This document shows, in pieces, positions 6,354 to 40,194 of a DNA stretch of 64,000 nt. Where the stretch lies: assembly GCF_044704955.1 (NCBI RefSeq), contig NC_091980.1, positions 130,758,001 to 130,822,000 of the forward strand, in the 5' to 3' direction. The position numbers were made by a program, and so were the translations under genes. The stretch is from Pristiophorus japonicus. Lineage: Eukaryota. The notes under the pieces were generated by a model. That model searched no databases. It was not told the DNA's origin and saw only the letters and a list, made by a program, of their open reading frames with translations. Every line of letters begins with the position of its first letter. The stretch's first letter is position 1.

Positions 6354-6554
<201 letters not shown>

Positions 6555-11551: not shown

Positions 11552-14131
<2,580 letters not shown>

Positions 14132-15814
14132 ACTGACTGGGATCAAGCTTATTGTGTTTAGTACTTGTATTTATATAATCAGGCCCCTATACTGTAGGGA
14201 ATGAAGGCTTGTGACTTTGTACAAAAAGAGCTAAAACCCATAACAGTAAATAAACTGTTCAACATTGGGCTGTGTTTTGTCACCTTGTAAATTTGAGTGG
14301 TTACTTATTTTTCATTTAACGTAACTTGGTTTCCATCAAACAAGAATTACACTGACCTGTGCAACATTTATTTGGGATTCAGTCCTATGAAATGTGTTTT
14401 CCCCTTGTGTAATGTCTATGTATTGACTGGGCCACTCAGGCACCTGTTATAAGATCTAAAATATTCAAGAATGTGTTTGGACAACTGACAGCCCCATGGG
14501 ATGTTGGCCCAGTGACCAAAACTCTGGTCAGAGGTATGTGTTGAGGTACAGAGATGTTTAGGAAGGCATGTCTCGAGCTTGGCACTGATAAGCTGTATAC
14601 AATTACCTGTTCCAACGATCTGTTTTTTACAAAGGAGACTTCAATCCAACAAGATGTAACATCTGCTAAACACAGGACCAATTTGTCAGTAGTTCATTGT
14701 TGCACCATTTCAGTCCAATGAAGAAACAGTCCTGGATTAGCTTCCTATTTAGTCTATCTGCCTTGTGAACGAACAGCAGTTTGTATTCAATCGCTGCAAT
14801 AGATCCTCTTCAGTAATGGGACTCACCACTGCTGCTATAGCCTTGCTGTTAAGCTTTGTAGGCAGAAAAGCAATATCTCAGCACACTGAACTCTGGGCAC
14901 TAGAATTGGGTGAGGAGGGAAAGCAACAGTTGTCATCAGCTTGCTGTCATAGCTTCAGTGCTTTGTGTGGATACCCTAGCGGTTCTGGGACAGCTTCTCT
15001 TCAGCCTGCTCCCCTAATGGTTGAATAACTTGCCAATACAACCTCCATTCACATGAATAAGGTATTGCAAGACTAATGATACTCCAACAAAATTTAATAC
15101 TTGGCAAGGTGTAAATGTATTTAATTCCACAAAGCAAAAGGCACAAGATGTTAAACCCTTTTCTGGCCACAATGCTTAAGCACTCAATTTATAAGCCTAT
15201 CAATTTTTTTTTCTTAGTACCGCTGTGAATGGATACAAATGGTACTGCTGCTCCAATAATCCAGTGTTTACAAGTTATTTTTATGAATTTAATTGAGAAC
15301 TGTGTTGAGTGCAATTAAATAGCCATGCACAGACATTCCAGGTTAATGTCTTGGCAACACTCAAGCGCCTTTCGGCTATCGATGTTACAAAATGTCATAT
15401 ATTGATGAGCCACAGTTCCACGAGTCGGCCTGGGTTTGCGTGCTGATGGTTTTGATGGCTTCATGTATCAACAAATCTCCAGCTCACTCAATGTGAAACT
15501 TTACAGGTGCTCGTGTTTTAAGAATTACTTACAATTTATAGCACAGGAAAAAGACCATTTGGGCCAACTGCGCCATTCTGTGGTTTATGCTCCATGTGAA
15601 ATATGTCCCACCCCACTTCATCTGGACCTATTAGCATATCCTTCTATTCCTTTCTCCTTTGTGTTGATCAAGCTTTCCCTTAAATGCATCTATGATCTTT
15701 GCATTCAGAGTTATTACTGCGAGTATCTCAGTAAACGCACTGCTGCTGCTGTGAATTTTCTGTTAAGCTGTGTGGGTAAAGAAGTGAGTAACAGCTTTCA
15801 AGACCCGCAATGTT

Positions 15815-18000
15815 TGAGCTCAAGGACAGCATTTATTGTCCGTCACTAATTGCCTTTGAGAAGGTGCTGGTCAGCCATCTTCTTGAACCGCTGCAGTCTT
15901 GTGGTGAAGGTACTCCAACAGTGCTTTTCGGGAGGGAGTTCCTGGATTTTGCCGCAATGACGAAAAAGGAATGGTGATACACACCAACCTGACTTGGAAA
16001 TGTAACGTGGAGGTGAACTTGCAGGCGATAGTATTCCCAAACTTCTGCTGCCCTTGTCCTTCTAATTGCTAGAGCTCGTGGGATGGCTTGTGCTGCTGAA
16101 AAAGCCTTGGCGAGTTGCTGCAGTGCATCTTGTCGATGGTACACACTGCAGCCATGGTGCACCGGTGGTGGAAGCAGTGAATGTGGAAGGTGGTGGATGG
16201 GATGCCAATCAAGTGGCCTGCTTTGTCCTGGATGGTGTCGAGCTTCTTGATGATTGCTGAAGCTGCACTCAGCCAGTCAAGTGGAGAGTACTCCACCACA
16301 CACCTGACTTGTGCCTTGTCGATGCTGGAAAGACGTTAGGTGTCAGGAGGTGAGACACTCACCGCAAAATACCCAGCCTCTGGCCTGCTCTTATTACCAG
16401 AGTATTTATGTGGCTGGGCGAATTCAGGTCTTGATCAGCGATGACCCCCAGGGGTTAATGCTGGGGAATTCAGCGGCAGTGAATGTTAAGGGCAGGTGGT
16501 TAGACTCTCGTTTTTTGCAGATAGTCATTGCCTGGCACTTGTGTGGTGCCATTGTTACTTGCCCATTATCAGCCCCACACCGAATGTCATCCAGGTCTTG
16601 CTGCATGTGGGCATGGACTGCTTCATTTTCTGATGTCTTGCAAATGGAACAGAACACTGTGTAATCATCAGCAAATATTCCCACTTCTGGCCTTTATGAT
16701 GGAGGGAAGTTCATTGATGAAGCAGCTTAAGATAGTTGGGCCAAGGACACTGCCTTGATGTATTCCTGCAGAGATGTCCTGGGGCTGAGATGATTGACCT
16801 CCAACAACCACTTCCTTTGTGCTAGATATGAGTCCAGCTCATCGAGAATTTTCTATATTCGCATCGACTTCAATTTTGCAAGGGCTACTTGATGCCGCAC
16901 TCCATCAGGTGCTGCCTTGCTGTGAAAGGTAGTCACTCTCACCTCACCTGTAATTCAGCTCCTTTGTGCATGTTTGGACCAAGGCTGCAACGAGATCAGG
17001 AGCTGAGTGGTCCTGGCACAACCCAAACTGGGCATCGGTGAGCAGATTATTGTCGACAAAATCTTCCCTCACTTTGCTGATGATTGAGTGTAGAATGATG
17101 GGGCGGTAATTGGCCTGAATGGATTTGTCTGGCTTTTTCTGGACAGGACGTACCAGAGCAGTTTTTCACATTGTTGGGTAGATGCCAGTGTCTCTGTACT
17201 GGAACAGCTTGGCTTGAGGTGTGGCCATGAATTTACAGATTGTGGTGCAATACAATTCTGCAGTTGCTGATGACCCACAGTGCCTCATAGATGCCCAGTT
17301 TTGAGCTGCGAGATCTGTTTTGAATCTATTCCATTTAACACTGGTCAAACCACTCACCACGAAGGAGGGTGTCCTCAGTGTGAAGACAAGACTTTGTCTC
17401 CACAAGGACTGTGTGGTGGTCACTGCTACCAATGCTGTCATGGACAGATGAATCTGTGACAGGTAGATTGCTGTGGACAAGATCAGTAGGTTTTTCCTTT
17501 GTGTTGATTCTCTCACCATCTGTCGGAAGCCCAATCTCGATGCTGTGTCTTTCAGGACTCAGCCCGCTTGCTCAGTGCTACCGAGCCCCTCTTGGTGATG
17601 GACATTGAAGCCTATTGCTATAATCAGTGCTTCTTCCAAGTGGCCTTCAACATGAAGGAGTGCTAATTCATCAGCTGAGCGCGGGTGGTAGGTGGTACTC
17701 AGCAGGAGGTTTCCATGCCCAAGCTTGATCTGAACCCATGAGACTTGATAGAGTCCAGATTCAATGTTCAGGACTCCTACCACTACTCCCTCCCGACTGT
17801 ATACCACTGAGCCGCCACCTCTGGTGGGTCTGCCCTTCTGATGGGACAGAACATACGCAGGGATGGTGAAGGAGGAATCTGGGACATTGGCCGAAAGGTA
17901 TGATTCTGTGATTATGACTATGTCAGGCTGTTGCTTGGCTAACCTGTGGGACAGCTCTCCCCATTGAGGCACAAGATACCAGATGTTAGTGAGGAGGACT
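15815..18000 (-). mobile_element. Decayed APE-RT non-LTR retrotransposon (CR1/L2-group, clade uncertain)
   Basis: Endonuclease motifs PDIVIITESYL and RGGGSVVY (17559-17972); RT GIFADD (16424-16684); EYSPLDW (16069-16299). Internal deletions. Confidence 0.8.
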
Positions 18001-18809
18001 TTGCAGGGTTGACTGGGCAGGGTGTACCATTGTCATGTCAGAAGCCGGTGCCGAGGTCAATGCCGGGTTGTCCATCCTGTTTTATTCTAATTATTGTTTC
18101 TCGTAACGGTTTGTTACAACTGATTGGCTTGCGAGGCCATTTCAGAGGGCAGTTAAGACTCAACCACATTGCTTTGGGTTTGGAGTCATATCGGCCAGAT
18201 TTCCTTCCCGAAGGACATTACTGAAGTAGATTGGTTTTTTTGACAATCCGATAGCTCCCTGGGCAACATTACTGATACTAGCTTTTTATTCCAGATTTTA
18301 ATTTAATTAACTGAATTTCAATTCCCCAGCTGCCATGGTGGGACTTTGGATTATTAGTCCAGGCCTCTGAATTACTTGTCCAGGAACATAACCACTATGT
18401 TACCGCACTCTTTGCATCTCTCAATGGCACTTTTGGAGTATCGATGTCACCACAATTCATACATTGATGAGTCACAATTCTACAAGTCATGTTGGGTTTT
18501 GCGTGCTGATGAGTTTCACGGCTTCATGTTTCAGATAAAACAAATTCTTCAGCTCACTCGATGTGAAAAACTTTACAGATGCCCTTGTTTTAAGAATTAC
18601 ATAGAATTTACAGCACAGAAAAAGGCCATTCAGCCTGGCAAATTGCAGTGGTGAGCGGTCCTTCTTGAACATAAAATGTATCTAGGATGATGTGAGGAAA
18701 CGACTGAGACAAGATCGATTTAATTGTCTTTCAATCATGAGCATGGAGAGCGAAGTACTGAGAGGACTTGACTTCACACACTGAGCCTCCTCCCAACTTC
18801 ATTTAACCC

Positions 18810-20250
18810 TATCAGGGTAACAATGGACATGATCTTTGCAGCACGCCAATTGCAGGAAAAATACAGGGAGCAGCGCCAGCCCTTATACATGGTATTTTTT
18901 GATCTTATAAAGGCCTTTGAGACTGTCGACCGTGAGGGCTTATGGAGCGTCCTCCCTCCATTTTGGATACCCCCAAAAGTTTGTCAACGTTCTTCGCCTG
19001 CTCCACATCGACATGCATGCTGTGAGCCTTATCAGCAGATTTGTTACAGACCCATTCCACGTCCGAAGCGGGGTCAAACAGGGCTGCTTCATCGCTCCAA
19101 CGCTTTTCTCAATCTTCCTCGCTGCCAACTCCACCTCACTGTCAACAAGCTCCCCGCTGGAGTGGAACTAAACTACAGAATTAGTGGGAAGCAGTTTAAC
19201 CGATGCCCTCTCCAGACCAGTGCAAGACCACCCAAACCTCTGTCGTTGAACTGCAGTATGCGGACGACGCCTGCGTCTGTGCACATTCTGAGGCTGAACT
19301 CCAGGATTTAGTCGATGTCGTCACTGAGGCATATGAAATCATGGGCCTTGCACTTAACATGCATAAGGGAAAGTGCCTCCATCAGCCTGTCTTCGCCGCA
19401 CAGCACGGCCCCCCAGACATCAAGATTCACGGCGTGGCTCTCGACAATGTGGACCACTTCCCATACCGCGGGAGCCTCCTGTCAACAAAGGCAGACATCG
19501 ATGCGGAGATTCAATATCGCCTCCAGTGCGCCAGTGCAGCCTTCGGCTGCCTGAGGAAAGGAGTGTTCGAAGACCAGGCCCTCAAACCTACCACCAAGCT
19601 CACGCTCTACAGGGCTGTAGTAATACCCACCCTACTGTATGGATCAGAGGCATGGATGACTTACAGAAGGCACATCTCGTCGCTGGAGATATATCACCAA
19701 AGATGCCTCCGTAAGATGCTGTAAATTCCCTGGGAGGACAGATGCACCAACATCAGTGTCCTCGCGCAGGCTAACATCCCCAGCATTGAAGCACTAACCA
19801 CATGTGATCAGCTTTTCTGGGCAGGCCACTTAGTCCACATGCCAGACATGAGACTCTCTAAGCAACTGCTCTATGCGGAACTCCTTTATGGCAAACGAGC
19901 CAAAGTTAAGCAGCGGAAACGTTACAAGGACACCCTCAAAACCTCTCTGATGAAGTGCGACAGCACCACTGATGCCTGGGAGACCCTGGCCGAAGTCCAT
20001 CCTAGTTGGAAAAAGTGTGTCCGGGAGGGCGTTGAGCTCTTCGAATCTCAACGCTGCGAGCGTGAAGAGGTCAGGCAGCGGAAGGAACGTGTGGTATATC
20101 AGTGACACCCACCGCCTTCCCCCGACGAATATCTGTCCCATCTGTGACAGGGTCTGTGGCTTTCATGTTGGACTGTTCAGCCACCAACGAACTCACTTTA
20201 GGAGTGAAAGCAAGTCTTCTTCGATGCCGAGCGACTGCCTATGATGATGG
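18810..20250 (+). mobile_element. 5'-truncated RTE-clade LINE
   Basis: RT motifs DMIFAARQLQEK, FFDLIKAF, GVKQGC, LQYADD, LLYGSEAW; C-terminal CPICDRVC...SHQRTH; short (ATG)n tail. Frameshifted. Confidence 0.88.
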
Positions 20251-21429: not shown

Positions 21430-22409
21430 TAGGTGTTTGATATTAGTGAAATATTACCTTTGTACTTCTACAAAGTTTTTACTTTGGAAAAATAAAATAT
21501 TAAGATGGTTTTTCAAGTGTGTCAAAATTACCACCAGGACTGTGAGGATGCTGTCAACAAGCAGATCAACATGAAGCTTTCTTTCTCCTATGTTTATCTC
21601 TCTATGGTGAGTTTTGTGTTTTTTGCCACTTTACAATGGAGACTATGTAATGTGAATTTATGAAATCCTGTGCTGTACACAGCTCACCTCTTGCTCTCTT
21701 TCTGTCCACCCTGCCTTCCCACCCCACCCCAGCCTTGAATCTATGCAGTGAATTCACTTTTAAAGCTATAATATGATACAATTTATCTTAATTTGTATTT
21801 GTTAACAAATTCTCTCTGTTCCTTGTATCATCTGATTATCTTGATTCTTTCTTTTTCCTGGAATCTTGAGCTTGATTAAGTTTATTTGGAATACATTCTG
21901 CACACAATGCAAGGAATTCAGAATTAGTATCCTCATTCTAAATCACTGCATGGGCTTTCCTTACCTTGCTGGTTCAATGGGTGGTGACATAAAAATAAAT
22001 TTAGGCCATTTAGGAGGGAAGTCAGGAAGTATTCTTTCCCGCCAGTGTGGTGAAAATCGGAAACACTTTTTCTCCCAGCCATCCCTCACCTCCACAGGGG
22101 GAGGATGGGAGGAAAGTGTTACAAATGTTTCTGCTTCCCTCCTGTTCCTAGTGTTTCTAACCTCTTAATTTTAAGTACCAGATTGTATCCTTTTTTTCCT
22201 CGAACTTTTAGCACCAATAAAGCAAAGAAAGTTCATCAATTGTCTGCACTGTGGACTCTACCTTAACCCCGTGATCTTCAACAAGCACTTCAAATTCTGA
22301 GGGGTTCTCATGAAACATTTTTTTTTCTGTGGTCTCTGCTTCTCTGCTACTGTGCCAAATTAATGCTGCTTGTGGTAATTTTAGTTCCTTGGCATGATTG
22401 TAGCCAGTA

Positions 22410-25400
22410 TGTTAGCATGAATGTTGTCTCAGCAGAATCACTCAACACTGTCGGTTCCCATGCCAATGCGGCCTTTATTTTGGCATGCGGGGAGGAAGCC
22501 TCAGGACTGGATCCAGGCAATTCTCTCTGATGAACAAAGAAACTCAGCGATATTTGTTTTACAATAGTTTTTTACAGTTACTCAGCCCACTTCGGCTGTT
22601 CACAATCCAATCATAACGATTATAGATTACACTTCGGTTTCTTTAACCCAATAAAATTCCCCATATACCTCAGGGGCTGTATGTTCGGTTTTGTCAGCTC
22701 GGGCTGATTAATGACCTCGTTTATGTGAGGCAGGTTCTCCCCTTATCTCTGTTCCTCGTGGCTCGGCTGTGTGAAGTCACTGATTATACCAGTGTACTAT
22801 AATGGTTCGTTATAATTATCTTGTATCCAAGGCATTCCTGGTAGTGGGCCTCACATGGTCATTGCTCAGTCATTGCTCGAGTTCATTACTTGACTAATTG
22901 AGTACCCATCATGCCTGGACAGCCATTTTGTGTGTCCACTTTAAACTTGAGTTTAGATATATTCAGCAGGTGCCTAATGCCTAGTGTTTTGATATATTCA
23001 GCAGGTGCCTAATGCCGACAACAATTCTCCCCCCCACCCCCCCCCCCCCCCTTCGGTAAAGGGACTAGTCCTAGTCCCCCTTTAACCGACCGTCCTACTT
23101 TTATTAGATTTTGTGCACGGCCTGGTACTCCCTGCCTCAATGTGCTGGCGAGTCATGTGGTTTCAGGAGTCCCGGTTGCTTAAATCAAATTAACAAAGGC
23201 CAAATCCTCCTGCTCCTTTATTAGACAGGCTTGTTTAGTATTTGGGGACCGGTCATGGGTCCCTCTTCGTCGTGCTGGGTGCCTGCATGCCTGGCAGGCC
23301 ATTCTGCCCCATGTTACTACTAAGATCAATTGTATCCCGACCGGTATGTGTGAAATTATTTGAATCCAAGGATGGATGTTCACATTTATTCCCCAGTCCC
23401 AGACCTTTCTCCACCAACTCTGACTTTGTAAGTCTACTTCGATATCTTCTTTCAGTACATTGATTTTAGTTTGCAGTTGGTGGTAGAGCTTTACGGATTG
23501 ACCCACCCTGAGTGTCAATTCTCGTAATACTTCGGTTCGATGTGGGATCGGGACCTGCTCTGACTCGTCATAATCCTGCAAACGATCGTGGAGCTGATCG
23601 GTTACATAAATAACTTCAGGCTTCCAGTGCCTAACCTGGGTGATATGCGCTTGCCCGATTGTGACAAGTCGTAGTGGTGCAAAGCAAATGTTAGGCTGTG
23701 GTATCGGGCACTGCAGGTCATTATACCGGTATGAACGCTCTGTGGTAGAGACGCAGTATCTTCCCTTCCCTCTGTAACCTACCCTCGCGAAGTGCCTGTG
23801 TGCGGGCACTATTTCTAGTACACACCTGTCGGTTCGGTTAAACCCGCACTCATCTCGCTCACCTCGGCCGACTGGGTGAGGGCATACTGTGATCTCCCCA
23901 TTTGCTTGCATTCTGTTAGGGAGATCCTGGTTTCTCCTCATCTCAGTCCCAAATGGCTGACCCCTTATCCTGAGACTGACTCCTGGTTCTAGACTCCCCA
24001 GCCCGGAGGGGAAACAGCCTCCCAGTATCTAAGCTGAATTATGTATGTTGTATGTCGTTTCGACGAACGGCGGAGGTGCTGGTCAGATAGTAACGTATGG
24101 AGACATTTTCCCGTATTACTCCGATATTCTCTAGTTGGTACAGGGGGGACGGCCCTGAGTCTGGCGTGGCGATAGGGATCATCAGGACTATCCCTATCCC
24201 AGTATTGCTACCCATCTGGCAATCTGGAATTGCTGGGTGTACTCTGGTCAGTCCCTTCAGAGTACAATTATCCTTTGTCCCCCTCTGCTTAGCCAACTGA
24301 GCTAAATGTGAACTGTCTATCCAATCGGGTACTTCCCTGCGTTGGATCTGGTCGAGATTGTGGCGGATCTGTCCCACCATCCACAGACCATAAGCGTGAC
24401 AGAGTTGCCCCAGTCTTTGCGTTCCTGTATCTTCTTTTTCTCTATCAATGAGGTGATTGGTTTTGGCGTGAGCTTCCAGGACTGAGATGCCATCCAACTG
24501 GATTTCGGCACCCTCCTTTCCTAGGTTGGCTTGGTCTTCCTGGTTTTGCTCCACTCTCTAATAACTTAACCCCTTCATCACCCCTCTAAGCTGTTCCACC
24601 CTCTCATTTAACCCTTGTATATCTATCGAGTTTACTACGGAGGCCCCTGTATTGAAACCGGTAGCAACATCATTAACTATTCCCCTCTTTATCCTGGGGG
24701 CTGACCCCTGTCCTCGGAATCTACTGGCACCCATTGCATCGGCAGCCTGCTGCATTACAACTTTACTTAATACATTGTACATTTTCCTTGACTGACTGTT
24801 CTGTCTAGTATTCCGGCATCTGGATGCCTGAAACATTGATCAGGACAGGCACAATTTCATGTTTAACATTATCATACAACAATTCCCCTTCGTTGTACAT
24901 TACAATCCTATTTTCTGGTCCCTCAGTAGTTATGTGACAAGGCAGTTCCTCGGGCAATGTAGTGGTTCTTATGGGGCACAGTGTCGGAGGGGGTGAGAAG
25001 CATACATGCAATGATATTGCAGCCGCCCCCACCTCGTAGTACCCACGCAGCCCCACTTTCTTTTTGCAGATGCCTGATTGCTGGGACTGTCCCGGAGGTG
25101 CGCAAATTATGCCGAAAGTACATTCATCGGGCCCTTTGACATCCCTCTGTTTAATGCAGCTGCTCCTTATACCCATGGAGCACTGTACACATACCCTGTT
25201 CTTATTAGGATTCACTTGTAACCATGCATTATAATAAGTCCTGTCCTTGCTCCAGTCCTTGGCTGCTGGGATGCACATTCCATCCGTTAAATTAAACAAG
25301 ACTCCATAGTTCATGTAGTTTATTTCCTGAGTGCGCTGCAATCCGTTGGTATCATCCAGTGTTTGCGTGGGTCTTGAGGTTCCCAGTATCATGAGTCCCC

Positions 25401-28400
25401 AGAGTCGAAGTCACCACTGCGGTCCCATCTTGGTGAGTGTTTTATCTGAAAATTTTAAACCGATAGCCTGGTTGTCACCAGGTGTTAGGTTCTGGTCTAC
25501 TTGTGTCGTTGTCACTCTGTGGAATCGGAGGTAAGGATTAGGTTAACCATATTCTTTATAGTCGTACCATCTCTATCACTTCATGTCCCTGTCTGGGCTG
25601 CTGTCGGTTTTGCGTATGAGCCTGCTGTGCTCGAGCCTGCGCGATGACCCATCTAAATATTATCCAAACTCCAATCAACACCAATGCCACCATTATTCCT
25701 CCAAACATCGCTGTCTGCTTTACCGTTAGGTTGGGTTTGTGGACTACACCTACCCACTGTGGGGTACATTGGCTCTATTGCCATAGGTGATGGTGCTATG
25801 GCTGTGTACTGCACTATCCATCTAGTCCTGTTTTTTAAAACATCTCTTCCAGCTTGTTTATCTTAGCTTTTAACTCTTGACCAGCTTGTTCCGTTTTATT
25901 TTTATTCTGAATATTCCACCATTTCCTCTGTCTGTCAGGTGAGTCTTCTTTCTTTTAAGAAATCCAAATTAATAATGTCTAGTATAAAACAGCTGTCAAT
26001 GGAAAGGGTTAACTCCTTTACAGGTTTGTAAGAAAGCCTGATGTCATTACGTGACTTCTTGTAATCATCTGAAAATTTTTTTTTTTTTTTCCCAAGTCTT
26101 TGTGCCTTAAACTTGCTTAGAAATTAGGAATCTGTTAAACAGCATAAATCATTAGTAAAGTGGTCATAATAAAAAATCTTCTCATCAAGAAAGACAGCAT
26201 TTTAGATTAAACTCCAATTTTTTTCTTAACTTCTAATTCAAGTACTTGCCAAATAATTTTTTTAAAAAATTGATTTAAGACAAGACCACACATTTTTAAT
26301 AGCTATTTTGTTTACTGAAATTCAATTTTGTTTTTTTTTAATTTCTCTCGCAGCACAAAATCTAAACATCTGTGCCAGTTCCATTTTCCTCAAGAATTTA
26401 AAAATTCAGTAAGATTCTCCAATTCCCAGTTTTTTTTTCTCTTTCTGTGCTGAGTTCGCAAAGCTTAGATCTTTTCTCCTCGTTCTCTTCAAAACCCTCC
26501 TGCTTGTTTAGACTGTTCGGGACTTTTCTTGATAAACACTGTCCATTTTGCAAATCTTTTCAAAGTGCATTGAAACTTTCTCATAATTTAAAATCTTTAT
26601 CAATGTAGAGTGTCTTTTACCTCCCATTTTTTTATTCTTTTTCTAATTAAACCAATATCGTTTTCACAGCAAACATCAACCAGTATTTAGTTTTGTCTTT
26701 CTCCATCACAAACACATTTTTTTTTTCAGCACATATTTAGTCCGTTACATTTTTTTTCAGATCTCCTTTCTTCAAATTAGGTTTTGTATTCTAAACGGAG
26801 GGCTCGTGACTTCATAAATTTGTTAATTTAAAATCATTTGTTTACTTTCAAAGTGTCGTCTTTATCTTTTTCTTTTCTCCATGACTAGAATGGAGTCCAG
26901 CAATTAGGTTTTGAGGGCTGCTTTTTGTGATCTCAAAATGCTCCAGTTTCAAAATCGTTAAAATGTCTCTGCTAAACTGCTAAAGCTTGCTGTTTTTAAC
27001 ATTTTTCAAAAGTCCCTTTTACACCTTTGCAGATAGCTCGCCACTCGCCCAGGAGTTTGACCTGATCCCTGAAGGTATTTCTAGATTGTTTCCAAACCTT
27101 TTAGTTTTATATCTCCTTTTTTTCCTTTAAGAGATCAGATTTAATTTAATTTTTTTTGAATCCACCTCAGTATTTTGCTGTGCTTTCTCTGAATATCTCA
27201 AAATCCCAATTCAAACTTTGTAATTTCAATCTTTATTTAAAATCTTTTTTTGAGCTAGAAGTTTTTTTTTTTATAAAGGCATTCTTTATCTCATTCCTAG
27301 ACTAAATTTATGTCTTTCAACCCAATGTAATCAATCATTGCATGTTTTCTTTCGACAAGTGAGCGTGTCAAATAAATTATTTTTTTTAAACCACTTGGAC
27401 CATGTATTTTTTTATCTTTTGCTCAACAAACCTATCCTTTGTATATTTCCTAGCTCCGTAAATTATCATCCAAATAAATCCACATCTGTGTTTCTAACTT
27501 AAAATGTCTTAAAACTTCCCACATACAGGACAACACAAAGGGTTAAAAAAAACTTTCACTCTGTTTAGAAAAGTGGGTGGAGTTAAAATAAACAGACACT
27601 TGCATTCCTCTTCCAACCAGGCTTTCGGAAACATGAAAACAAAAAAATTCATTCGGCAGTCAAGAAATCACAAGGACTCAACAACATTCATTCACAAGTC
27701 TCTCTCTCCATTCAACAAGCTTATTAATTTTTTTTTTTGGCAGGCTCTATTCTTGGATCCGTACTTCACTTAAGATAATCACTATCGTTTTTTTTTTATT
27801 TCATGCATATTGATTTACTTCCTCTGTTAGTTTTACGTGGGCTCACAGTATCAAAACTACAGCCTTTTCATTTTTATCTTTCTTTTCCTTCTCCCACCAT
27901 TTCCGCTGGTCTGCTTGCAGGTCCTGAGGATCCCACCCTGCTCTAATCATTTTCTCGATTTTTGTTTCTTTTGTTTTTCTGCCAGGTGGCGGGTAAGGGA
28001 CCCTTCTGATCCCCACTTGGTTATTTGTTTTATTGGCTATACCTGGGTAGGACTAGAACCATTAGGAATCTACTCTCGGAGGTCTGCTTTCTACCTAGCG
28101 TAACTTGTAGTAGACCGTCTCCTGGCTACTCTCAGGTCACAAGTTCTGCTGTTGCACAAACTTATTCAAGTCTTAACGCGTTTAAGCAATTCCCGCAGTG
28201 CTCTACGTATCCTTAATGACTACCTACCACCGCTCTGCCCGTTGGTCCGACCCTGTTGACAGGTTTGGATTCCGTTAGCCACTGTACACCGGGGTATATT
28301 TCAAATTACACTAATGAGGCCGGAAGATGTCTTTCAGTATCACGATCCCACGGTCCAAGTGTGTTCCCGGCACCTACTTAGTTCCTGGCCATCACGTGGG

Positions 28401-29122
28401 ACTAAAGTCCTCTTAATTCAGGCTCAGGCTAGGTGTTTGAGATATTGGACTGTCTCCTCGTGTTGATCTTCCAGCATCCACCTTCCGCACCGTTATAAAA
28501 TTTTGTTTAAGGTATACTCACCCGGTTTCTCCAAGAGCACCACTGTTAGCGTGAATGTTTTCTCAGAAGAATCACTCAACACTGAGTCGGTTCCAACGCC
28601 AATGCGGCCTTTATTTTTGCATGCAGGAAGGAAGCCTCAGGATTAGATCCAGGCACTTCTCTCCGACGAATAAAGAAACTCATCGATATTTAGGTTTTAC
28701 AATAGTTCTTTGCAGTTACTCAGCCCACCTCGGCTGGACACAATCCAATCATAACTATTATAGATTACATATAGGTTTCTTTAACCCAATAGAATTCCCC
28801 ATATATCTCAGGGGCTGTCTGTTCGGTTTTGTCAGCTCGGGATGATTAATTACTATGTGAGGCAGGATCTCCCCTTATCTCTGTTCCTCGGGGCTCGGCT
28901 GTGTGAAGTCACTGATTATACCAGTGTACTATAATGGTTCATTATAATTATCTTGTATCCAAGGCATTCCTGGTAGTGGGCCTCACTAGGTCATTGCTTG
29001 GTCAGCCCCAGTTCATTACTTGACTAATTGAGTACCCATCATGCCTGGGCAGCCATTTTATGTGTGGCCACTTTAAACGTATGAGTTTAGATACATTCAG
29101 CAGTTGCCTAATGCCTACAACA
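22410..29122 (-). mobile_element. Env-encoding, pol-less LTR element (non-autonomous endogenous-retrovirus-like) in intron 1 of copy C
   Basis: LTRs of about 600 bp at 22410-23023 and 28544-29122 (TGTTAGC...CAACA). Perfect 5-bp TSD cagta at 22405-22409 and 29123-29127. Purine-rich PPT on the - strand from 23024; PBS begins TGGTGC just inside the 5' LTR. Empty site visible in copy D intron 1 (tagccagca, about 45430). Confidence 0.92.
23180..25428 (-). pseudogene. env: Disrupted envelope / class I fusion glycoprotein gene
   Basis: ATG at 25428 with a signal-peptide-like MGPQW*LRLWGLMILGT. Then a Cys-rich surface part, furin site RIKR, fusion-peptide-like GIVNDVATGFNTGASVVNSIDI, a heptad repeat, a long Cys-rich ectodomain, a second heptad (LRELTLRVGQSVKLYHQLQTKINVL), a Trp-rich WWRKVWDW segment and a hydrophobic anchor (IQIISHIPVGIQLILVVTW). 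Broken into ORFs 24805-25392, 24558-24836, 24039-24554 and 23180-23941. Confidence 0.85.
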
Positions 29123-29509
29123 CAGTAAAACTCAGCTAGTTTTTCTCTGTTTTTTATATACAATATGAATTCTGCACTGTGACTCGATCTCTAGTTTAGG
29201 AAGTTGCTTTGACTGCCAATACTGCCCCTCAACTAGCCTGTACAAAATGTATTTGGGTTAATAAAGTAGTATTATTGGAGCATGCTACTGGTGACCAGGG
29301 TATAAATCTTGTGGCAACTCCTTCTCTAATTTCCAGAGCTACAATGAATATAGGGTGCCAAGATTAAGGTTCCAGTTTTAAGCATGTTCAATCAAAGCTG
29401 AATTGGTGATTATGGAGTGATTCAGCACAGGAGGCCATTCAGTCCATTGTGCCTTGCTGAATGTTGGGTGGAGCGATACAACGGTTTCCATAGCCTGCAA
29501 ATTTTTCTA

Positions 29510-30912
29510 AATCACGCAAGAGGATGAGACTGGGGAATTAGTAATGGGCAACATAGAGATGGCAGAAAATCTGAACAAATATCTTGTATCTGTTTTGACA
29601 GTAGAGGACAGTAACAACATTCCAATGGTGGATAGTCAAGGGGCTATAGAGGGGAGGTACTTAATGCAATAACAATCACCTGATGAGTTAGGACTCAGTA
29701 AGATAATTGGGCTAAAGGCAGATAAATGTTCCTGATGGCTTGCATCCTAGGGACTTTAGAAGTAGTGGCAGGGATTGTGGATGCATTGATTGTAATTTAC
29801 CAAAATTCCCTGGATTCTGGGGAGGTCCCAGCAGATTGGAAAGCTGCAAATGTAATGCCCCTATTTTTTTTTTTTTAAAGTAGGAAATTATAGACCAGTT
29901 TGCCTAATATCTGATTGGAAAAATGTTGGAGTCCATTATTAACATAGCAGCAGGGACATTTGGAAAAGTAAAATTTGATCAGGTAGAGTCGGCATGGATT
30001 TGTGAAGGGGAAGTGGTGTTTGATATATTTGCTGGCATTCTTTGAGGATGTAACGAACAGGGTTGATGTGAACCAGTGGCTGTGGTGTATTTGGACTTCC
30101 AGAAGGCATTTGACAAGGTGCCACAAAATTACTGCACGATGAAAGTTCACAGGCTTTGGGGGTAATATACTAGCATGGATAGAGGATTGGCTAAAGAACT
30201 GAGTCGGGATAAATGGTTCATTCTCTGGTTGGCAACCAGTATCTAGTAGGGTGCTGCAGGGATCAGTGCTGGGACCCTAACTATTTACAATCTATATATT
30301 ACACTCTGTCCCTCCATCCAAGTCTGTAACGTAGCCTAGTTTGTTGTTCCTCCCAACTTTGTCAGTGATGTGTGAGAACACACATCTGCAAAAGGACATA
30401 GGCAGGCTAAGTGAGTGGGCAAAAATTTGACTGTTGGAAAGTGAGGTCATGCACTTTAGCAGAAAAAAAAAATCAGAGCAAATTTTTATTTAAATGGAGC
30501 AAGATTGCAAAGTGCCACAGTACAGCAGGAGTGGTGGGGGGTGAGGTGCCTCTATTCAATGGAATTCAGAAGAATGAGGTGATCTTATTGAAATGTATAA
30601 GACTGAGGGGGCTTGACTGAGTGGATACAGAGAGGATGTTCCCGCTGATCAGGGAGACTACAACTAGAGGCATGATCTTGGAATAAGGGGCTGCCCATAT
30701 AGAACTGAGAAATTTCTTGAGGGTTGTCAATCTGTGGAATTTGCTGCCTGAGCTGTGGAAAGCTGAGACATTGAATAAATTTAAGACTGTAATACAGTTT
30801 CTTAAATGCTAAGGGATTATGTGGGGATGAGTCCATGATCAGATCAGCCATAATATTAAATGGCGGAACAGGCTTGGAGTTGTAGGGTCTACTCTTGTTC
30901 ATATTTCTCATG
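29510..30912 (+). mobile_element. Decayed CR1 LINE in intron 1 of copy C (its 3' part is repeated at 1-352)
   Basis: DNA encoding ANV.P.F, LDFQKAFDKVPH and GVLQGSVLGP motifs, plus a CR1 3' end. Confidence 0.8.
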
Positions 30913-31621
30913 TTAAGTTGCCCTATGGCTGGAGCTGAAATTATCCAATGTCTTTACCAGGTTAGTTGAGTAGGTGCTAGTTTCCATAACTATACATACA
31001 AGTTCAGTGAGACTGAGCCCTTAAAGCAAGAAAAATGAGTGACTTCATGTACAGTGCCCATGATGATTGGTGTGCCATGGAATAATCAACTACTCTTCTG
31101 ATCCCTCCGCAGTCCTTCTACTTTGACCGGGATGATGTTGCCCTGCGTCACTTTGCTGAGTTCTTCAAGGAGCAGTCACATGAGGAATGTGAGCATGCTG
31201 AGAAACTGAAGGAATTCCAGAATCTGCGTGGAGGCCGAATCATCTTGGCAGACATCAAGGTTTGGCTCCATAAACGAGGGGCCTTCTGTTTGGCTCCCCT
31301 TAGACTGATTGTTCACAATACATTGTAAAGGAGTTGGTTACAATTTACAGCACAGGAAGCAGCCATTTGGACAAACTGGTCCATGCTGGTGATCAGCTTC
31401 AGATGTCGTCCTCCCACCTTGCTTTATCCAGCAACATATCGTTCTATTCCTTTTTCCCTCATGTACTTATTTAGTTTCCCCTCAAATACATTTATGCTAT
31501 TCACCTCATAAATTTGACACCGGTCGTTGACTCAATGCAGTAATTCAATATTCTAACACATTGGTTCATGGTAACCTAGACTTCTGATTGCAATTTTTTC
31601 ATCCTCAATTTCCTTCAATAC

Positions 31622-34600
31622 TGTCCTATTTCCAAACCTGTTTTTACTGCTTGTACTATTACATATGTGCCACCAGAGGGCACTGCAGTCAGACTTGCAG
31701 GTGACCTGCACAGGTGTGCCAGGCCCAGTATAAAAGGCAGGCCAACAGGTGTGATTCTCACCACTCGAGTTCCATTTATGTAAAGTCCTGTCCCCTTAGT
31801 ACAGATTCTCACAAGGCATGTAGTGAAGTCAAGGTCACTCTGGACCTGCACCTTTATTTCACAGCTCTGGAATGCTGCACTTGCTTGAGACCTGTGCTTG
31901 TATAACCTGTCTCTTGCAAGTGCACCCCTGGTGGTAAGGTATGCTGGTGGTTACAGGTCATATCTTATTAGTCATGTATAGTATGTTAGGATACAGTTAG
32001 AAAAAATAATGTAAGATACATGACATCACCCTCCCCAAGGTCTTATTGTCTTTATAGGTTCAGTCTCTCAGGTGGTCTACACTCTCTCGTGTGGAGCGTC
32101 TGAGTTGTGGTTCAGTTGTTTGCCTTGGTGTCTGTTTATCTTTGGGTGTGGTTGCTGGTATCTCACCTTGGCTGTCTGTTGCAATTGCGCTTTCCTCAGG
32201 TTGTTCCCTCTGTCCACCAAGTGTGATGCGAGTTCCACATTGTAGTCTGCCTCTGGTTCTGCATTGTTGTTGGTAAATCTGCTTTTTACTTGGTCTACAT
32301 GCCTCCGGCAGGTTTTGCCATTGTCCACTTGTACTACCAGTAGCCTGTTTCCTTCCTTGCCCATTACTGTCCCTGCAAGCCATTTGGGACCCCTGCCATA
32401 GTTTAGTACAAACACTTTGTCCGCTATCTCATTCCATCTCCCCCTCGAATTTCTGTCATGGTACTCAGTCAGCTTAAGCGCTTTGCCTCAAGAATTTCGT
32501 GGATGTCTGGGAGGATTAATGAGAGCCTTGATGAAATGGACTTTAAAAACAACAGTTGCGTGGGGGGGATCCCAGTCAGTGAGTGCGGACGAGATCTGTA
32601 TGCCAGCAGCAGTCGCAACAGGCGACCCTGCAGCGTGGGACCTTGGATTTTAAGCATGCCTTATTTAATGATTTGCAATGCTCTCTCCGCCTGGCCGTTG
32701 GAGGCCGGCTTGAACGGTGCTGTCTTGACGTGATTTATGCCATGGTCAATTATAAAACCTTGGAATTCTGTGCTGGTGAAGCACAGGCCATTGTCACTGA
32801 CAAATATGTCAGGGATTCCGTGCATTGCAAACATGGTTGCAAGGCTCTCCACAGTGGTGGAGGTTGTGCTCGAGTTTAAAATGGTGCATTCAATCCACTT
32901 TGAAAATGCATCTACAACTACGAGTAACATTTTGCCCATGAATGGGCCCGCATAGTCTACGTGCACCCGTGACCATGGTTTGGTAGGCCAGGGCCAGGGG
33001 CTCAGGGAAGCCTCCCTGGGGGCATTGCTGAGTTGGGAACAAATGGTGCACCTTCGGATGCAGAGCTCCAAGTCTGCGTCAATACCAGCCCACCAGACGT
33101 GGGATCTGGCTATAGCATTCAAAACGGTCCCTGGGTGCTTGCGGTGGAGCTCCCGGACAAATGCCTTTCTGCCTCGCAGAGGCAGTCTGCTTGTAGTGAT
33201 AGCTCATGCATGCACCTGTGAAAGGGTTTTAATTCCTCGGGGCAGGCATCGCAAACCTCTGCCCAGTCACTGGTTAGGACATATCTTTTTACTAAGGATA
33301 ATGTGGGGTCGCAGGCCATCGAGGCTCTGATTTGGCAAGCCGGCATGGGCAATCCTGTGGATTCAAAGCATTGATTGCCTTGACTATCTCTCAGTCCTGT
33401 TCGTGAGACCCTTCTGTGGTCACCAGGGGTAGCCTGCTGAGCGCGTCGGCACAGTTGTCTGTGCCTTATGGTATAGTCGTAGGACGCCAGTATGAGTGGC
33501 CACTGTTGAATTCGCGCTGAGACGTTGGCGTTTATTGCCTTTATCTTGGATAGGAGGGACGTGAGGGGCTTCTGGTCGGTTCCTAACGCGAACTTGAGCC
33601 CGAAAAGATATTGGTGCATCTTTTTGACACCGCACATGCACGCGAGCACCTCCTTCTCTACCATTCTGTACCCGTGCTCCACCCGCAAAAGTGACCTGGA
33701 GACATAAGCTATGGGTTGTAATTTGCCCGCACTATTGACCTGTTGCAAAACGCACCCAACCCCAATAGATGACGCATCGCATGTGAGAACTAACTTTTTA
33801 CTTGCGTCAAAGAAAGTCAAAACACTGTTGGAACACAAAGTTGTGTGCCTTATTGAGGGCAAGTTCCTGGGCATCCCCCCCCCCCCCCCCCCCCCCCCAC
33901 CAGAATCAATCGCACCCCTTCCTGAGTAGCACGTGGAGAGGCTCCAGCAGCGTGCTTAAGTTCTGCATAAAGTTCCCAAAATAATTGAGTAGCCCGAGAA
34001 AGGCATGCAGTTCTGAGACATTCTGGGGCCTGGGTGCCAGGCGAATTGCTTCTGTATTGGACTCTCTTGGGCGGATTCCATCAGCAGCCTGATCCTTCTG
34101 CCCAAAAATTCAACCTCTGGTGAGAAACAGGCACTTGAATTTCTTGACTCATCTGCCTACCCGATCCAACCGCTTTAATATTTCCTCCATATTAGAGATG
34201 GGAGTCTGTCCCTACCAGTGATTAATATGTCGTCTTGAAATACAACTGTCCCCGGGATGGACTTGAGCAGACACTCCATGTTGCGCTGGAATATGGCAGC
34301 TGCTGACCTGATGCCGAATGGGCATCGATTGTACATGAAAAGGCCTCTGTTGATGGTGGTGAGTAGCTTGGATTCCTCGGTCAATTCTTGTCATATATGC
34401 AGATGTGAGGTCTAGTTTTGAGATGTTTACCTCCAGCCAATGTGGCAAATAAGTCCTCCGCTCTGGGCAGCGGGTACTGGTCCTGTTGGGAGACTCTGTT
34501 CATGGTCGATTTGTAGTCCCCACAGATTCGTATGGATCCATCAGGCTTCATGACTGGGACAATGGGACTTGCCCAGTCACTAAATTCCACAGGTGATATA

Positions 34601-36480
34601 ATGCCTTCCCGCAGAAGCCTGTCTAGTTCGTGTTCCATCTTTTCCCTCATCACATAGGGTACAACTCTGGCCTTGTGATGGACCGGTCTACCATCCTGTG
34701 TGATGTAGATTTTGACTTTGGCCCCTTTGAACGTGCCCACACCTGGCTGAAAGTGATGTTCAAATCACTTTATAACTGAGCAGGAGGTCCGTCCCTCTAA
34801 TGATATGGCATGGACATCATTCCATTTCCAGTTTCGTTTTGCCAGCCAGCTTCTCCCCAGCATTGCAGGGGGGGGGTCCTCCAAGGACAATCCACAGGGG
34901 AAGTTGGTTCACTGTCCCTTTGTGTGTGACAGATCATGGCGCTGCCAAGGACTGGTATGATTTCTTTGGTATAGGTCCTTAGCTTGGTGTCGAACCTTGA
35001 GTTTTGGTCTTTTTTTTAATGCGGCCACAGTTGTTGAAATTGTTGTGTGCCCGTGAGATTGATTCGCTCCTGTATCCAGCTCCATGTTGACAGGTATCCT
35101 GTTGAGTAGGACCTTCATTATAGGAGGTGTCCTGTTGTAGGAGCAGCAGCCATTGATCGTGTTGACCCGCTGCACATCAGTGTCCCGGGTACTGTCCCCA
35201 CCGTCTTCTGGTCTGCTTTCCGACCCATATGATTCGTATATCAGTCGAGCTGTTTTTTTTGCACATGTGGGCCAAATGCCCTATATTTTCACAGTTCCTG
35301 CAAACAGCCTGCTGAAATCAACAACCCCTTGACGAGTGCCCACCCTCACCTCCAGCACAGACTGCTTCCATTGTTCCCCAAAGAATGAGCTGTGTCTGGC
35401 TGATCTCTTGAGCTTCTCCTCAGTTTGTCGTTGTTTGTTCGCATTGTGGATTGATGAGGTGTGAACAGCCGTTTCTGTGGCCCTTGATGGTTTCTGGTGC
35501 CACTGCCTGCTGTCGAGAGCTTGTTCTCCCGGTTTTGTCTGTGGGGGTAGCAGCTTGTTTACTGTTGTGACCAACTTGTTTTGATATTTCGTTAGTTGTC
35601 GTACCTGCATTGTAAATCAACCTCGTTTCTTCTTCCCCCTACCAAGAATGTCTGTGCAACCAGTGCTGCTGCCTCTAAGGTCAGGTTCTTGGTCTCGATG
35701 AGCTTTCAGAATATGCCTGCATGGCCTATTCCTTCAGTGAAAGTCTCAGCATTTCTCTCCTCAGTTCATCGGAGAACTCACAAACGAGCCAACCTCAAGT
35801 TCCGCCACGAAGTCGGGTATGCTCTGGCCCACACAGCATCTGTAGTTGGAGAACCTGTGTCTGGCCATGTGCAGGCTGCTCGCTGGCTTCAGGTGGTCTC
35901 ACCAGTGTGCTCAATTCTTCAAATGACTTGCTTGCTGGTTTCTCGGGTGCCAGCAGATTCTTCATAAAAGCGTATGTTTTCGAGCCACAGCTGGTCAAGA
36001 GATGGGCTCTTGTTTGCTTTGTCGTCTCCTAACCAGTCTTTGGTTACAAAGCATTGCTGGAGCCTTTCTGTAAATTCCTCCCAATTGTCTCCAGCATTGT
36101 ACTTTTCATCTGATCCGTTCGCCATTCTGTGGATTCTGTAATCCCGTAACTTATCACCACTATAGTCCTGTCCCCTCAGTACAGACTAACACGAGGCATG
36201 TCATGAAGTCCAGGTCACTCTGGACCTGTACCTTTATTTCACAGCTCTGGAATGCTGCACTTGCCTGAGACCTGTTCTTGTATACCTGTCTCTTGAAAGT
36301 GCACCCCTGGTGGTAAGGTATGCTGGTGGTTACAGGTCATCTTATTATTCATGTATAGCATGTTAGGATACAGTTATATATAATGTAAGATACATGACAC
36401 ATAAAATGGACTAAGGTCACTACAGTTAATGTACAATACATTGCCTCGTGGAGTCATTATCAGAGCATCTAAAGACACAA
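31622..36480 (+). mobile_element. Duplicate of the split solo LTR
   Basis: aatac direct repeats at 31617-31621 and 36481-36485. Confidence 0.75.
31779..36399 (-). mobile_element. Duplicate of the same Gypsy insertion, in intron 2 of copy C
   Basis: LTRs at 31779-32025 and 36161-36399. Protease LDTGA (34909-35175), RT FQDD (34175-34740), RNase H (33119-33874), integrase (32661-33122). Same insertion site as in copy A. Confidence 0.95.
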
Positions 36481-36853
36481 AATACTTGTTTTGTTTTAAT
36501 CTGACTTTCCTCTTCAGAAACCAGAGCAGGATGAGTGGAGCAATGGTCTGGAGGTCATGCAGAGAGCTCTGTAAATGGAGAAGAATGTGAACCAGAGTCT
36601 GTTGGATCTGCACAAACTCTCCACTGGGAGCACTGACCCTCATGTAAGTTCCTAATGCTTCAATGTGGGCTTTTGGGTAAGTTGCTGTCCTTGAACTTAA
36701 TTTAAAAAGATCTCTGTGCCCAATAGCTTTGTGTTGGTCTATTTTTGGGGGTAGATATTGTAAATTAGTCTGATCCCAGCACCTTTTTGTATAGCAAGTT
36801 TTCATCTAAATGATGCAGTAATTACATTGCACCAATTTCAATTGCACCACTGA

Positions 36854-37111
<258 letters not shown>

Positions 37112-37674
37112 TAAAGCTTCTGATCAGTACTCATGTTTATACAATGTGTGTGAGACTCTGTCCTACATAGAATGGTGGCTTTGTGCAGGCTGAGACCTGG
37201 GCTCTTGATGTGAAATGTAATCAACTGTAAATAAACTGTTCAATATTGAGCTGGGTTTTATCTCCTTGCAATTAGTGGTTGCTTATTTTCCATTTACCAT
37301 AACTTGTTTGCAGCACAAGTATTGCACTCGGTTATGCAACAATCATACATTGGCCTCCTGTGCTGTAACCACTCAGCCTGTTGAGCCTCTGCTGGCTCTC
37401 CAAGAGCACTTCGGCTCATCCTACTCCCTTGCATTTTCCTTCATGGACTTGTTCAATCCTATGATTAAAACTGGCTTCACCACCCCCTCGGGCAGTGCAA
37501 TCCAGATATTATCCGCTCACTGCATAAAAGTTTATCCTCGTGTCAGCTGTAGTTCTTCTGCCAATTGTCTTAAATTTGTGTCTGCTGGTTCTCGTCCCTG
37601 CTGTCAGTGCAAACAGTCCTATAATTTTTCACTTTGCTGGAATAATTTCAATATATTGACATTCCTATTCACAA

Positions 37675-39625
37675 AAAACATAAATCGGAGCAGTAGTAAC
37701 CCATTTGGTCATGTGAAGCCTGCACCGCCATTCAATATGATCATTACTGATCCTTTACCACCACCATGTTCATGCTTTTACCCCATAGCCCTTGATGCCT
37801 TTTTGTATCAAGATATCTCATATCCTTCTTAAATATATTCAGCAATTGGGCTCCACTGCCTTCTGTAGTCAACAGTTCCCCAGCTTCCCCATCCTGAGTG
37901 AAAACATTTCTCATCTCACGCTAAATTTCCTACCTCGTATCCTGAGCCTGTGACCTTTTATTCTCAACTTCCCAGCCAGGGGGTACTTCCTCCCCACATC
38001 CAGTCTCTCCAAACCAGTCCGAATTTTATGATTCATTAAGATCCCCTTTCACTCTTCTGGTGAATACAGGCCTGGTCAAACCATTCTCTCTTCACACGAC
38101 AATCTTTCCATCCAAGGAATCAGTCTGGTGGAACTTTGCTGCGCTCTTTCTTGGTGAAAGAGACTCAAAACTGTGCACAATACACCAGGTGTCATTTCAC
38201 CAAGGCCATGTATAATTGTTGTAAGACATCCTTGCTCCTGTACAGTGGGAAAAAATTGAAAATATTACATTTGGTTTCTTCCTCCAAATCTATTTATATA
38301 TCTGACTAGCTGGGGCCTAGGCATTGATCCCTGTGGTATCCCACTCGTCACTGCCCACCACCCAGGAAAAGACCTGTTTATTCTGACTTTTTTCAATCAA
38401 TTAACCAATTTTCAATCCATGGCAGTATATTACCCCCAATCCTATGTGCTTTAATTTTGCTCACTAACCTCTTGTGGGACTTTATCAAAGGCCTTCTGAC
38501 AATCCAAATACACTAAATCCACTTGTTCTCCCTTATCTAATCTCAGTTACATCCTCAAAAAAAAAAAAACTCCAGTCGGTTTGTGTCACCATTTTCGTTT
38601 CATAAATCCATATTGACTTTGTCTAATCGTGTTGATATTGTCTGTGTCCCTTTATCACATTCTACTAATGTTAGGCTAACCGGGCTGCAGTTACCTGTTT
38701 TCTTTCTCCTTCCTTTTTAAAATAGTGGGGTTACATTTGCCACCCTCCATTCTGTGGCAACTGTTCCATAATCTGTAGAAATTTGGAAGATGATAACCAA
38801 TGCATCCACTATTTCCATGACTACCACTTTTAGTTCTCTAGGATGCAGATTATCAGGCCCTGGGGATTTATCAGCTTTCAGTCCCATTAGTTTCTCCAGC
38901 ACTATTTTCTTACTAATAATCATTCCCTTTAATTTCTCTTGCTCACTAGACCTTTAGTTCCCTAGCATTTCTGGGATGTTAATTTGTGTCCTCTTCTGTG
39001 AAGACAGAACCAAAGTATTTAATTGTTCTGCCATTTCCTTGTTCCCCATTATAATTTATCCCATTTGTGACTGAAAAGGACCTACATTTGTCTCATTTTT
39101 CTTTTTACATAATGGGAGAAATGTTTAGTCGGTTTTTATGATCTTTGCAAGTTTAGTCTCATACACTATTTTCCCCCTCTTAAACAATCTCTTGGTCCTT
39201 TTTTGCTGCATACTAAACTGCTCCCAATCCTCAGGATTGCTGCTTGTTCTGGCAACTTTGTATGACTCCTCTTTGGATCTAATATTATCCTTAATTTCTT
39301 GTGTAAATCATGGTTGGGCCACTTTTCATTTTGTGTTTTTGCAGCAGAAAGGAATGTATAATTGTTGCGATTCATGCATTCGTTCCTTAAATGTTAGCCA
39401 TTGACTATCCACCATCATGCCTTTTAATGAATCTTCCCAATATGTCATAGCCATTCCTCATACCTTTGTTTAGATTTAGGACCTAGTTTTGGATTGGACA
39501 ACTTCACTTTCAATCTTCATGAAAAATTCAAGAATGTTATGATCATTCTTCCCTAAAGGACCCCACGCAAACACTATTAATTAATCCCTTCTCATTGCAT
39601 AATACCAATCTATGATAGGTATTCA
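37675..39625 (-). mobile_element. Duplicate decayed CR1 LINE
   Basis: Paralogous to 7128-9085; ORF 38717-38923. Confidence 0.8.
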
Positions 39626-40194
39626 GACATGTTGAAGACCTAATTTCAATTGTATATGTAATGTCTCAAAAATCTCGTTACTGTAAACTCACTCAGGTGC
39701 AACATCATCCATCTTTATTCCAGCCCAAGAGTGCCAGCGTGACAAAGACACCCAACTTACATACAGGTGATCAAACACACATGCCACGTGTGTACAGCCC
39801 GACGACCTCCGACTGTGGCACCCTCTGGTGTCTTGTGACCCCCACGCATTAATACATAAGAGAATATCTTGCAAATTCTATTCATGCTTTTCAATCTAGC
39901 ATTGCAATGCTGCAATACAACAGTTGAAAATGTTCACGTTTGTTCAGCCACATAAGGCAGTGGGACCACAGGTAAATGTTAGTGTCTTAAAGGAGGTAGA
40001 GAGGTTTACATAACATGCATATGTCATTTGGCACCTCGAGCCTGCACCACCATTCAATAAAACAACGGCTGGTCTGATCTTGGTCTCAACACTTTCCTGC
40101 CTGTTCCCCATAACCCTTGACTCACCTATTGTTCAAAAATCTATCTACCTCCACCTTAAATTTATTCAATGACCCTGCCTCCACACACACACTC

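Follow-up and report, generated by a model that had tools for sequence, protein, structure and literature searches.

The 64,000-nt stretch of Pristiophorus japonicus DNA analysed here (the window; GCF_044704955.1, NC_091980.1, positions 130,758,001-130,822,000) holds on its minus strand, at 22410-29122, an endogenous retrovirus (ERV) that carries an envelope gene (env) and no pol. In its own direction the element runs from a TACTG target-site duplication (TSD) through a 579-bp long terminal repeat (LTR), an internal region of 5.5 kb, a purine tract rich in G and a 614-bp LTR to a second TACTG (Table 1), and the LTR pair and 5-bp TSD noted in a preliminary description of this DNA are both present. 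The LTRs have TG...CA ends. The two LTRs are 89.9% identical when gaps are included and differ by 7.6% in substitutions, a divergence among the highest in our sample. Alignment to a full-length relative covers 17% of gag and 0% of protease, reverse transcriptase (RT), RNase H and integrase, in agreement with the earlier report that RT, integrase and protease are missing. The element is not, as had been thought, an env-only unit, as it also retains a gag stub, an AT-rich filler, a second and older gag stub and the remnant of a membrane open reading frame (ORF).

Two further features of the preliminary description stand in part. A purine tract precedes the 3' LTR, but of the primer-binding site (PBS) claimed with it only TGG is left, ~29 nt having been lost relative to sister copies, which have a PBS; among 12 aligned leaders this deletion occurs only in the window copy and its segmental duplicate. 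The GTGAGT, TTTTCAG and env ATG of a retroviral splice layout were correctly placed, but the env architecture is not intact, because a stop at codon 6 of env (25413-25411) leaves the putative layout without an open frame downstream, and a second acceptor candidate, ending at 25517, is no less well retained among the subfamilies than that at 25452-25446. Env is further broken by frameshifts near codons 211 and 470, a stop at 24560-24558 and a fragment of a long interspersed nuclear element (LINE), which we take to be CR1-like; this insertion had been recognised, but with limits (23931-24036) that differ from those found here (about 24049-23932).

Table 1. Features of the pol-less element, in window coordinates
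Feature	Position	Strand	Remark
5' TSD, TACTG	29123..29127	-	
5' LTR, 579 bp	28544..29122	-	TG...CA
PBS remnant, TGG	28540..28542	-	~29 nt deleted in window copy; family PBS tRNA-Ser-like
Candidate splice donor, GTGAGT	28516..28521	-	putative; in 12/12 aligned leaders
Broken gag stub	27793..28040	-	first ~85 codons, matrix region
AT-rich filler 'U', 2.1 kb	25708..27792	-	in place of remaining gag and all pol
Filler core	25954..26071	-	part of U kept most consistently; 98% presence in 48 pol-less copies
Second gag-matrix stub	25883..25948	-	weak, older; 3' end of U; E ~2e-4 to 6e-3
Membrane ORF remnant, C-terminal	25556..25707	-	single-pass; 64-79 codons, between pol and env, in full proviruses
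Alternative env splice-acceptor candidate	25517..25542	-	branch-point-like CCTAAT, pyrimidine tract, CAG ending 25517
Splice-acceptor candidate, TTTTCAG	25446..25452	-	17 nt before env ATG at 25428
Broken F-type env gene	23180..25428	-	707 codons in intact relatives
Furin-type site, RIKR	24684..24695	-	
Secondary insertion in env, LINE RT-end fragment, ~118 nt	23932..24049	-	gap against relatives; translation resembles LINE ORF C-terminus in L060
Env membrane anchor region	23290..23368	-	followed by ~35-40-residue tail
Polypurine tract	23024..23053	-	G run expanded
3' LTR, 614 bp	22410..23023	-	35-bp tandem duplication at start
3' TSD, TACTG	22405..22409	-	

A second copy of the element, 99% identical and sharing the PBS deletion, lies 40 kb away (62570-64000; L052) within a larger duplication that pairs 9840-20214 with 50272-60643 at 98% and 1-9653 with 30559-40187 at 92%. 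In another pol-less copy (L060:5718-8405), a LINE with an open frame of 895 codons has been inserted.

Pol-less copies and their complete relatives

A 172-residue piece of Env compared with the 5.9-Gb genome gave 13,674 candidates and 150 scored matches at 91-100% identity, from which 38 distinct 10-kb loci, selected in part for long frames, were sampled. The large majority (33/38) are pol-less with filler, the layout of the window copy, four have pol and one is unclassified; a 4-5-bp TSD was detected automatically in 17 of the 33 pol-less copies, with differing flanks. Seeding with integrase produced 124 matches, and eight copies selected because their pol frames are long (L071-L078) are proviruses of 9.4 kb. 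These contain gag, pol, a membrane ORF of 66 codons and env, and have LTRs, leader, purine tract and env in common with the pol-less elements. Pol-less copies with different TSDs thus coexist with gag-pol helpers bearing the same LTR, which rules out a one-off internal deletion and supports the earlier proposal of a non-autonomous satellite. With its LTR pair, TSD, purine tract, lack of enzymes, many independent sites and autonomous partner, the element is a non-autonomous ERV. Exact 20-mer markers, which detected 77-100% of their target classes among the copies fetched, occur in the genome 1,587 (env), 3,035 (filler), 121 (RT) and 53 (gag capsid) times, and reversed controls 0 times; on these counts pol-less forms outnumber pol-bearing ones about tenfold or more.

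The defective copies fall into subfamilies B1, to which the window copy belongs, B2 and class C, with median LTR divergences of 2.6%, 0.7% and 0.2% respectively, compared with 0.3% in the full class. Class C (six copies, L081-L086) is young and lacks gag and protease, but has long RT-RNase H-integrase frames together with part of the filler and a deletion in env. Many identical integrase matches belong to class C, and its members resemble recombinants of the pol-less form and the helper. One PBS variant of the family agrees in 17 of 18 positions with the 3' end of two tRNA-Ser(AGA) genes of the genome; the B1 variant fits them less well and presumably pairs with another serine tRNA. The single-pass membrane ORF of 64-79 codons between pol and env (L071-L078, L088-L090) is open across subfamilies that differ by ~25% in env and possibly encodes an accessory protein. 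Twelve of the 53 gag-capsid marker matches lie on one contig (C23), perhaps a sex chromosome or a region of low recombination.

The helper is likely a shark retrovirus of the snakehead retrovirus (SnRV) clade, as judged from a hand count over one RT stretch rather than a tree: it is identical to SnRV at 112 of 248 gap-free positions (~45%), to walleye dermal sarcoma virus (WDSV) at 93/248 (38%) and to one lokiretrovirus at ~86/245 (35%), using reference sequences from the supplement of PMC7947760. The motifs LTIDY, NGFWSI, QYTWTRLPQGFH, KINPKK and GLFN are common to the helper and SnRV, and a small accessory ORF is found in both. Against the PDB, helper pol scores 405 bits with murine leukaemia virus (MLV)-type RT-RNase H and ~206 with Ty3 and foamy virus, the Ty3 match being limited to residues 189-495. 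It has tether-like and separate RNase H domains, and in the integrase region the Pfam matches are rve, MLVIN_C and H2C2 only. Gag has two zf-CCHC stretches, and pol follows in frame after one stop. A scan of viral contigs found none of the reference RTs. The Loki-like, spuma-like or env-Gypsy origin proposed earlier is therefore unsupported, the helper RT being SnRV-like by hand comparison, with its best score to the MLV type. SnRV-related ERVs are described from the elephant shark as CmiERV lineage I (Han 2015, PMC4422223) and form clade Huo (Xu et al. 2018, PMC6001957). In SnRV itself the Env tail measures 136 residues and the 3'ORF 205 codons (PMC12193657), whereas the shark Env tail is ~35-40 residues long and no such ORF follows env; these are features of SnRV itself, and the clade may differ.

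Predicted fold and decay of the envelope

All eight close Env homologues are labelled as sharks, which supports a cartilaginous fish as host, as had been thought probable from the sequence. The RIKR furin-type site was likewise correctly identified, as were the large fusion subunit behind it (~450-500 codons claimed, 462 in intact relatives) and the absence of the immunosuppressive domain (ISD) and CX6CC motifs of gamma-type Envs from the Env translations. A profile search collected 59 Env relatives, ray and frog proteins among them, and we modelled the ectodomain core of an intact relative, whose env has ~91-92% DNA identity to the pol-less copies, rather than that of the window copy. With 35 sequences the model reached a pLDDT (predicted local distance difference test) of 70 and a pTM (predicted template modelling score) of 0.47; an earlier fold from nine sequences had a pLDDT of only 29. 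Against the PDB, 262 matches had E<=0.001, headed by post-fusion F of respiratory syncytial virus (E 4.6e-11) and human parainfluenza virus 3 (E 5.2e-11), with henipavirus and Newcastle disease virus F also present and template modelling scores of 0.35-0.43 at the top ranks. Predicted viral structures matched by the model include F proteins of lispivirus, chuvirus and baculovirus, and an Atlas search returned Baculo_F and Fusion_gly clusters at 0.91-0.93. The fold match extends across both cleavage products and confirms the modelled Env as an F-type (paramyxo-/pneumo-like) class I fusogen, as first suggested; the best PDB matches are F proteins rather than gamma- or epsilon-type transmembrane subunits, and no gamma-type Env is among the structure matches listed. 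The F-like fold is nevertheless not diagnostic of lineage, because predicted Envs of epsilonretroviruses also match (walleye epidermal hyperplasia virus 1, E 3e-11; WDSV, E 1e-7), as does that of feline foamy virus (E 1e-5). Sequence comparison was less informative: Pfam has no env family match in the window pieces or the intact env and a single weak Baculo_F match (E 0.001) among 24 relatives, and PDB sequence searches with a window piece and with a nine-sequence profile returned nothing useful.

Distant full-length Env relatives (the P0050 cluster, P0051, P0029 and P0046) occur in frogs, where one species has a cluster of 16 members, mostly of 677 residues, and in sharks, some with a possible immunoglobulin-like N-terminal domain in place of the Cys-rich one. 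Env-derived stretches are also found in three shark host-gene models (P0033, P0065 and P0070; Niban-like, fbxo15 and cadherin-related), as either exonisation or annotation artefacts.

The env of the defective forms is disabled near its start in ways particular to each subfamily. In B1 the codon-6 stop is present in all 30 readable starts (4 of 34 copies differ in their junction) and in 91 of the first 100 entries among 448 genomic matches; a frameshift near codon 75 is common to 11 of 14 B2 copies, and class C shares a deletion of env codons 116-163. The earlier picture of a working env unit is unsupported given the B1 stop and the shared 5' lesions of the other subfamilies. B1 copies are open after codon 40 in 2 of 32 cases, and 7 of the 12 full copies analysed have an open env of their own. 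Changes restricted to single B1 copies (32 copies) have a neutral ratio of nonsynonymous to synonymous changes (N/S) of 0.91 in the env body. Among shared changes replacements are depleted (N/S 0.26-0.27), mostly on account of variants also present in pol-bearing copies (0.20), and B2-private shared variants are too few for an N/S judgement. These codon counts leave out 14 duplicate or flank loci, nine poorly or partially aligned copies (L014, L018, L020, L021, L022, L025, L068, L075 and L079) and the unclassified L066. The env tree takes the form of a ladder ordered by LTR age, on which full and pol-less copies are intermixed. The env of the window copy is likely dead cargo, a passenger that is not expressed.

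A filler shared with another retroviral class

The filler is absent from all 13 full-type copies. We fetched 20 filler sites on one contig (C1) that were found through the filler core and lack the env marker. Six are class I-like elements, of which four differ in LTRs and PBS and four encode a gamma-type Env that has ISD and CX6CC; one site joins SnRV-like pol remnants and a gamma-type env, two belong to a third LTR family whose env is distantly F-like, six carry older or variant forms of the env found in the window element's own family, and five are fragmentary. The class I-like ERV family (L113, L115-L119, L132, L145-L154) has a gamma-type Env and a different PBS, and its defective copies contain filler pieces. 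We rejected the filler as the class I helper's own gag, as 7 of 10 long-gag class I copies lack a filler match and the other three have pieces in the leader.

The core of ~120 nt is near-invariant across LTR settings, yet the copies were found through it. In env-selected copies its mismatch rate is 4.6%, against 5.7% for the env body; its retention may simply reflect position, because this rate is close to that of the env body and the core adjoins env. None of 23 pairs in the core has a two-sided change, giving no covariation support for an RNA structure, and Rfam gave no match. The core also contains clustered motifs (TGACATCA and GTCACGTAAT), which we take to be CRE/bZIP-like, and could possibly act as an internal enhancer. 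Our best guess for the filler as a whole is the decayed leader of an older virus, since a faint gag stub stands behind it.

A bolder combination of these points, which we put forward tentatively and with doubts that outweigh our confidence, is that the filler is a portable hitchhiking cassette, made of an older virus's decayed leader and gag start with a retained packaging or enhancer core of ~120 nt. It would have moved from helper to helper in two retroviral classes, one SnRV-like with an F-type Env and the other class I with a gamma-type Env, exchanging LTRs, primer sites and envelopes in the process, and would outnumber the SnRV-like helpers ~25- to 55-fold by marker count. The satellite would then be defined by its core and not its LTRs, and the SnRV clade would stand as a lineage of orthoretroviruses whose envelope is F-type.

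Mobilisation, lineage and significance

The reading we favour, at a probability of roughly 70%, is that the window element is a decayed copy of a high-copy, gag-truncated, pol-less subfamily of a shark retrovirus, likely of the SnRV clade, that it was likely mobilised by the Gag and Pol of complete proviruses, and that its F-type env is likely a non-expressed passenger. Pol-less RNA would be packaged, reverse-transcribed and integrated by the proteins of complete proviruses of the same family. Most simply, the mosaic patterns suggest that pol-less and helper RNAs were packaged together and that templates were switched repeatedly within the 3' half common to both, a process that would continually overwrite the env body and LTRs with current helper versions; lesions beside the filler-env junction would escape replacement, because the helper has no matching sequence there, and would be passed on as the subfamily spread. 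Less frequent switches involving other retroviruses would put filler pieces into defective class I proviruses. New copies could arise within the cell or by reinfection with helper Env.

Several observations weigh against it. Among the first 100 B1-type starts, codon 6 encodes an amino acid in nine, all of them pol-less and joined to older or foreign env and LTRs, so that earlier defective forms may have had an open env start. Shared env variants private to B1 have an N/S of ~0.5 (31 nonsynonymous and 25 synonymous at 56 sites; p 0.02-0.08 per bin), which some selection within the pol-less lineage, or under-sampling of older helpers, could explain. Many nodes of the env tree have low support, and the intermixing is read directly from its topology; exact-marker counts vary with copy age and the markers were picked on the same sample; and the placement with SnRV is a hand count over one RT stretch.

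The B1-private ratio would also fit pol-less elements acting as env donors, with Env expressed through readthrough or another start or splice site, maintained by selection and complementing env-poor helpers. The retained splice donor and acceptor candidates, the presence of the env body at 97% in pol-less copies and the two B1 copies open past codon 40 are consistent with such a role. We nonetheless consider it unlikely: a disabling 5' lesion is common within each of the three subfamilies, the next B1 ATG yields no hydrophobic leader as read by eye, and a donor is unneeded because over half of the full copies analysed carry an open env. A different account places the origin of the mosaic pattern and shared filler at the DNA level, through gene conversion, ectopic recombination or segmental duplication, for which the nearly identical duplicate within the window and the tandem copies L050 and L108 provide examples. 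This is highly improbable as a general explanation, as the copies are spread over many contigs and have TSDs that differ and LTR pairs that are young, indicating that the mosaic forms integrated afresh. The recombinant junctions of class C are common to numerous independent insertions whose LTR pairs are nearly identical.

Slimmer still is the chance that the family belongs to the lokiretroviruses, foamy-like viruses or Gypsy elements with env. Foamy viruses have a Gag without CCHC knuckles and a Pol separate from Gag, in contrast to the zinc knuckles and in-frame pol of the helper, and the Ty3/Gypsy pol of errantiviruses and env-Gypsy elements has a single RNase H where the helper has tether-like and separate RNase H domains. 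Foamy Env is the best PDB sequence-profile match (E 0.007), and an F-like Env is described in lokiretroviruses (PMC7947760), foamy viruses (PMC11468914) and errantiviruses (PMC13524379); however, the predicted epsilonretrovirus Envs match the model as well, and RT motifs and identity favour SnRV. The shark Env has an F-like core in common with epsilonretrovirus Env and with foamy Env, the latter a solved structure (PMC11468914), but at 707 residues with an N-terminal signal-like segment it is without the long leader peptide of those proteins (~980-1,320 residues). Likeness to lokiretrovirus Env extends to the signal peptide, RXKR site, fusion peptide, coiled coil, membrane anchor and similarity to paramyxo-/pneumovirus F (Wang and Han 2021, PMC7947760). 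Lokiretroviruses are set apart by an RT clade that is the sister group of other retroviruses and by an integrase most similar to CGIN1. Apart from the lower RT identity given above, the lokiretrovirus differs in its RT motifs; in the shark element no SMC-like gene was seen, no long ORF being present in the filler of 12 pol-less copies. In the same survey (PMC7947760) lokiretroviruses are not reported from Chondrichthyes, with 0 of 3 chondrichthyan genomes positive.

As a helper-dependent passenger, the pol-less subfamily has counterparts elsewhere. ETn/MusD, VL30, recKoRV and MER4-group elements are non-autonomous ERVs mobilised in trans that resemble it in the same way as two fish and bird families. 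In these, zebrafish Bik-2 and chicken ENS-1, LTRs, primer site and polypurine tract are kept, enzymes are lost, internal sequence is not that of the helper and copies exceed helpers, as here (bioRxiv 2024.03.25.586437). Unlike all these elements, the shark element keeps a near full-length, disabled env that has tracked its helper over time, and its filler also occurs in defective elements of another retroviral class. A literature search, mostly of journals open without subscription and with Repbase outside its scope, found no description of an F-like Env for the SnRV clade, of an env-carrying non-autonomous SnRV family or of such a shared filler.

The window copy itself is dead and has no evident host function. 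The complete, pol-less and gag-less forms of graded age in this one genome are a record of helper-passenger dynamics from which recombination and the cost of expressing env could be measured, and the shared filler points to exchange of sequence between retroviral classes in one germ line. F-type Env is described in foamy, loki- and errantiviruses, whereas the Env of orthoretroviruses is assigned to the other subclass of class I (PMC11468914). The combination of an SnRV-like pol with an F-type Env, together with the matching epsilonretrovirus models, suggests that F-type Env is widespread, and possibly ancestral, among aquatic retroviruses.

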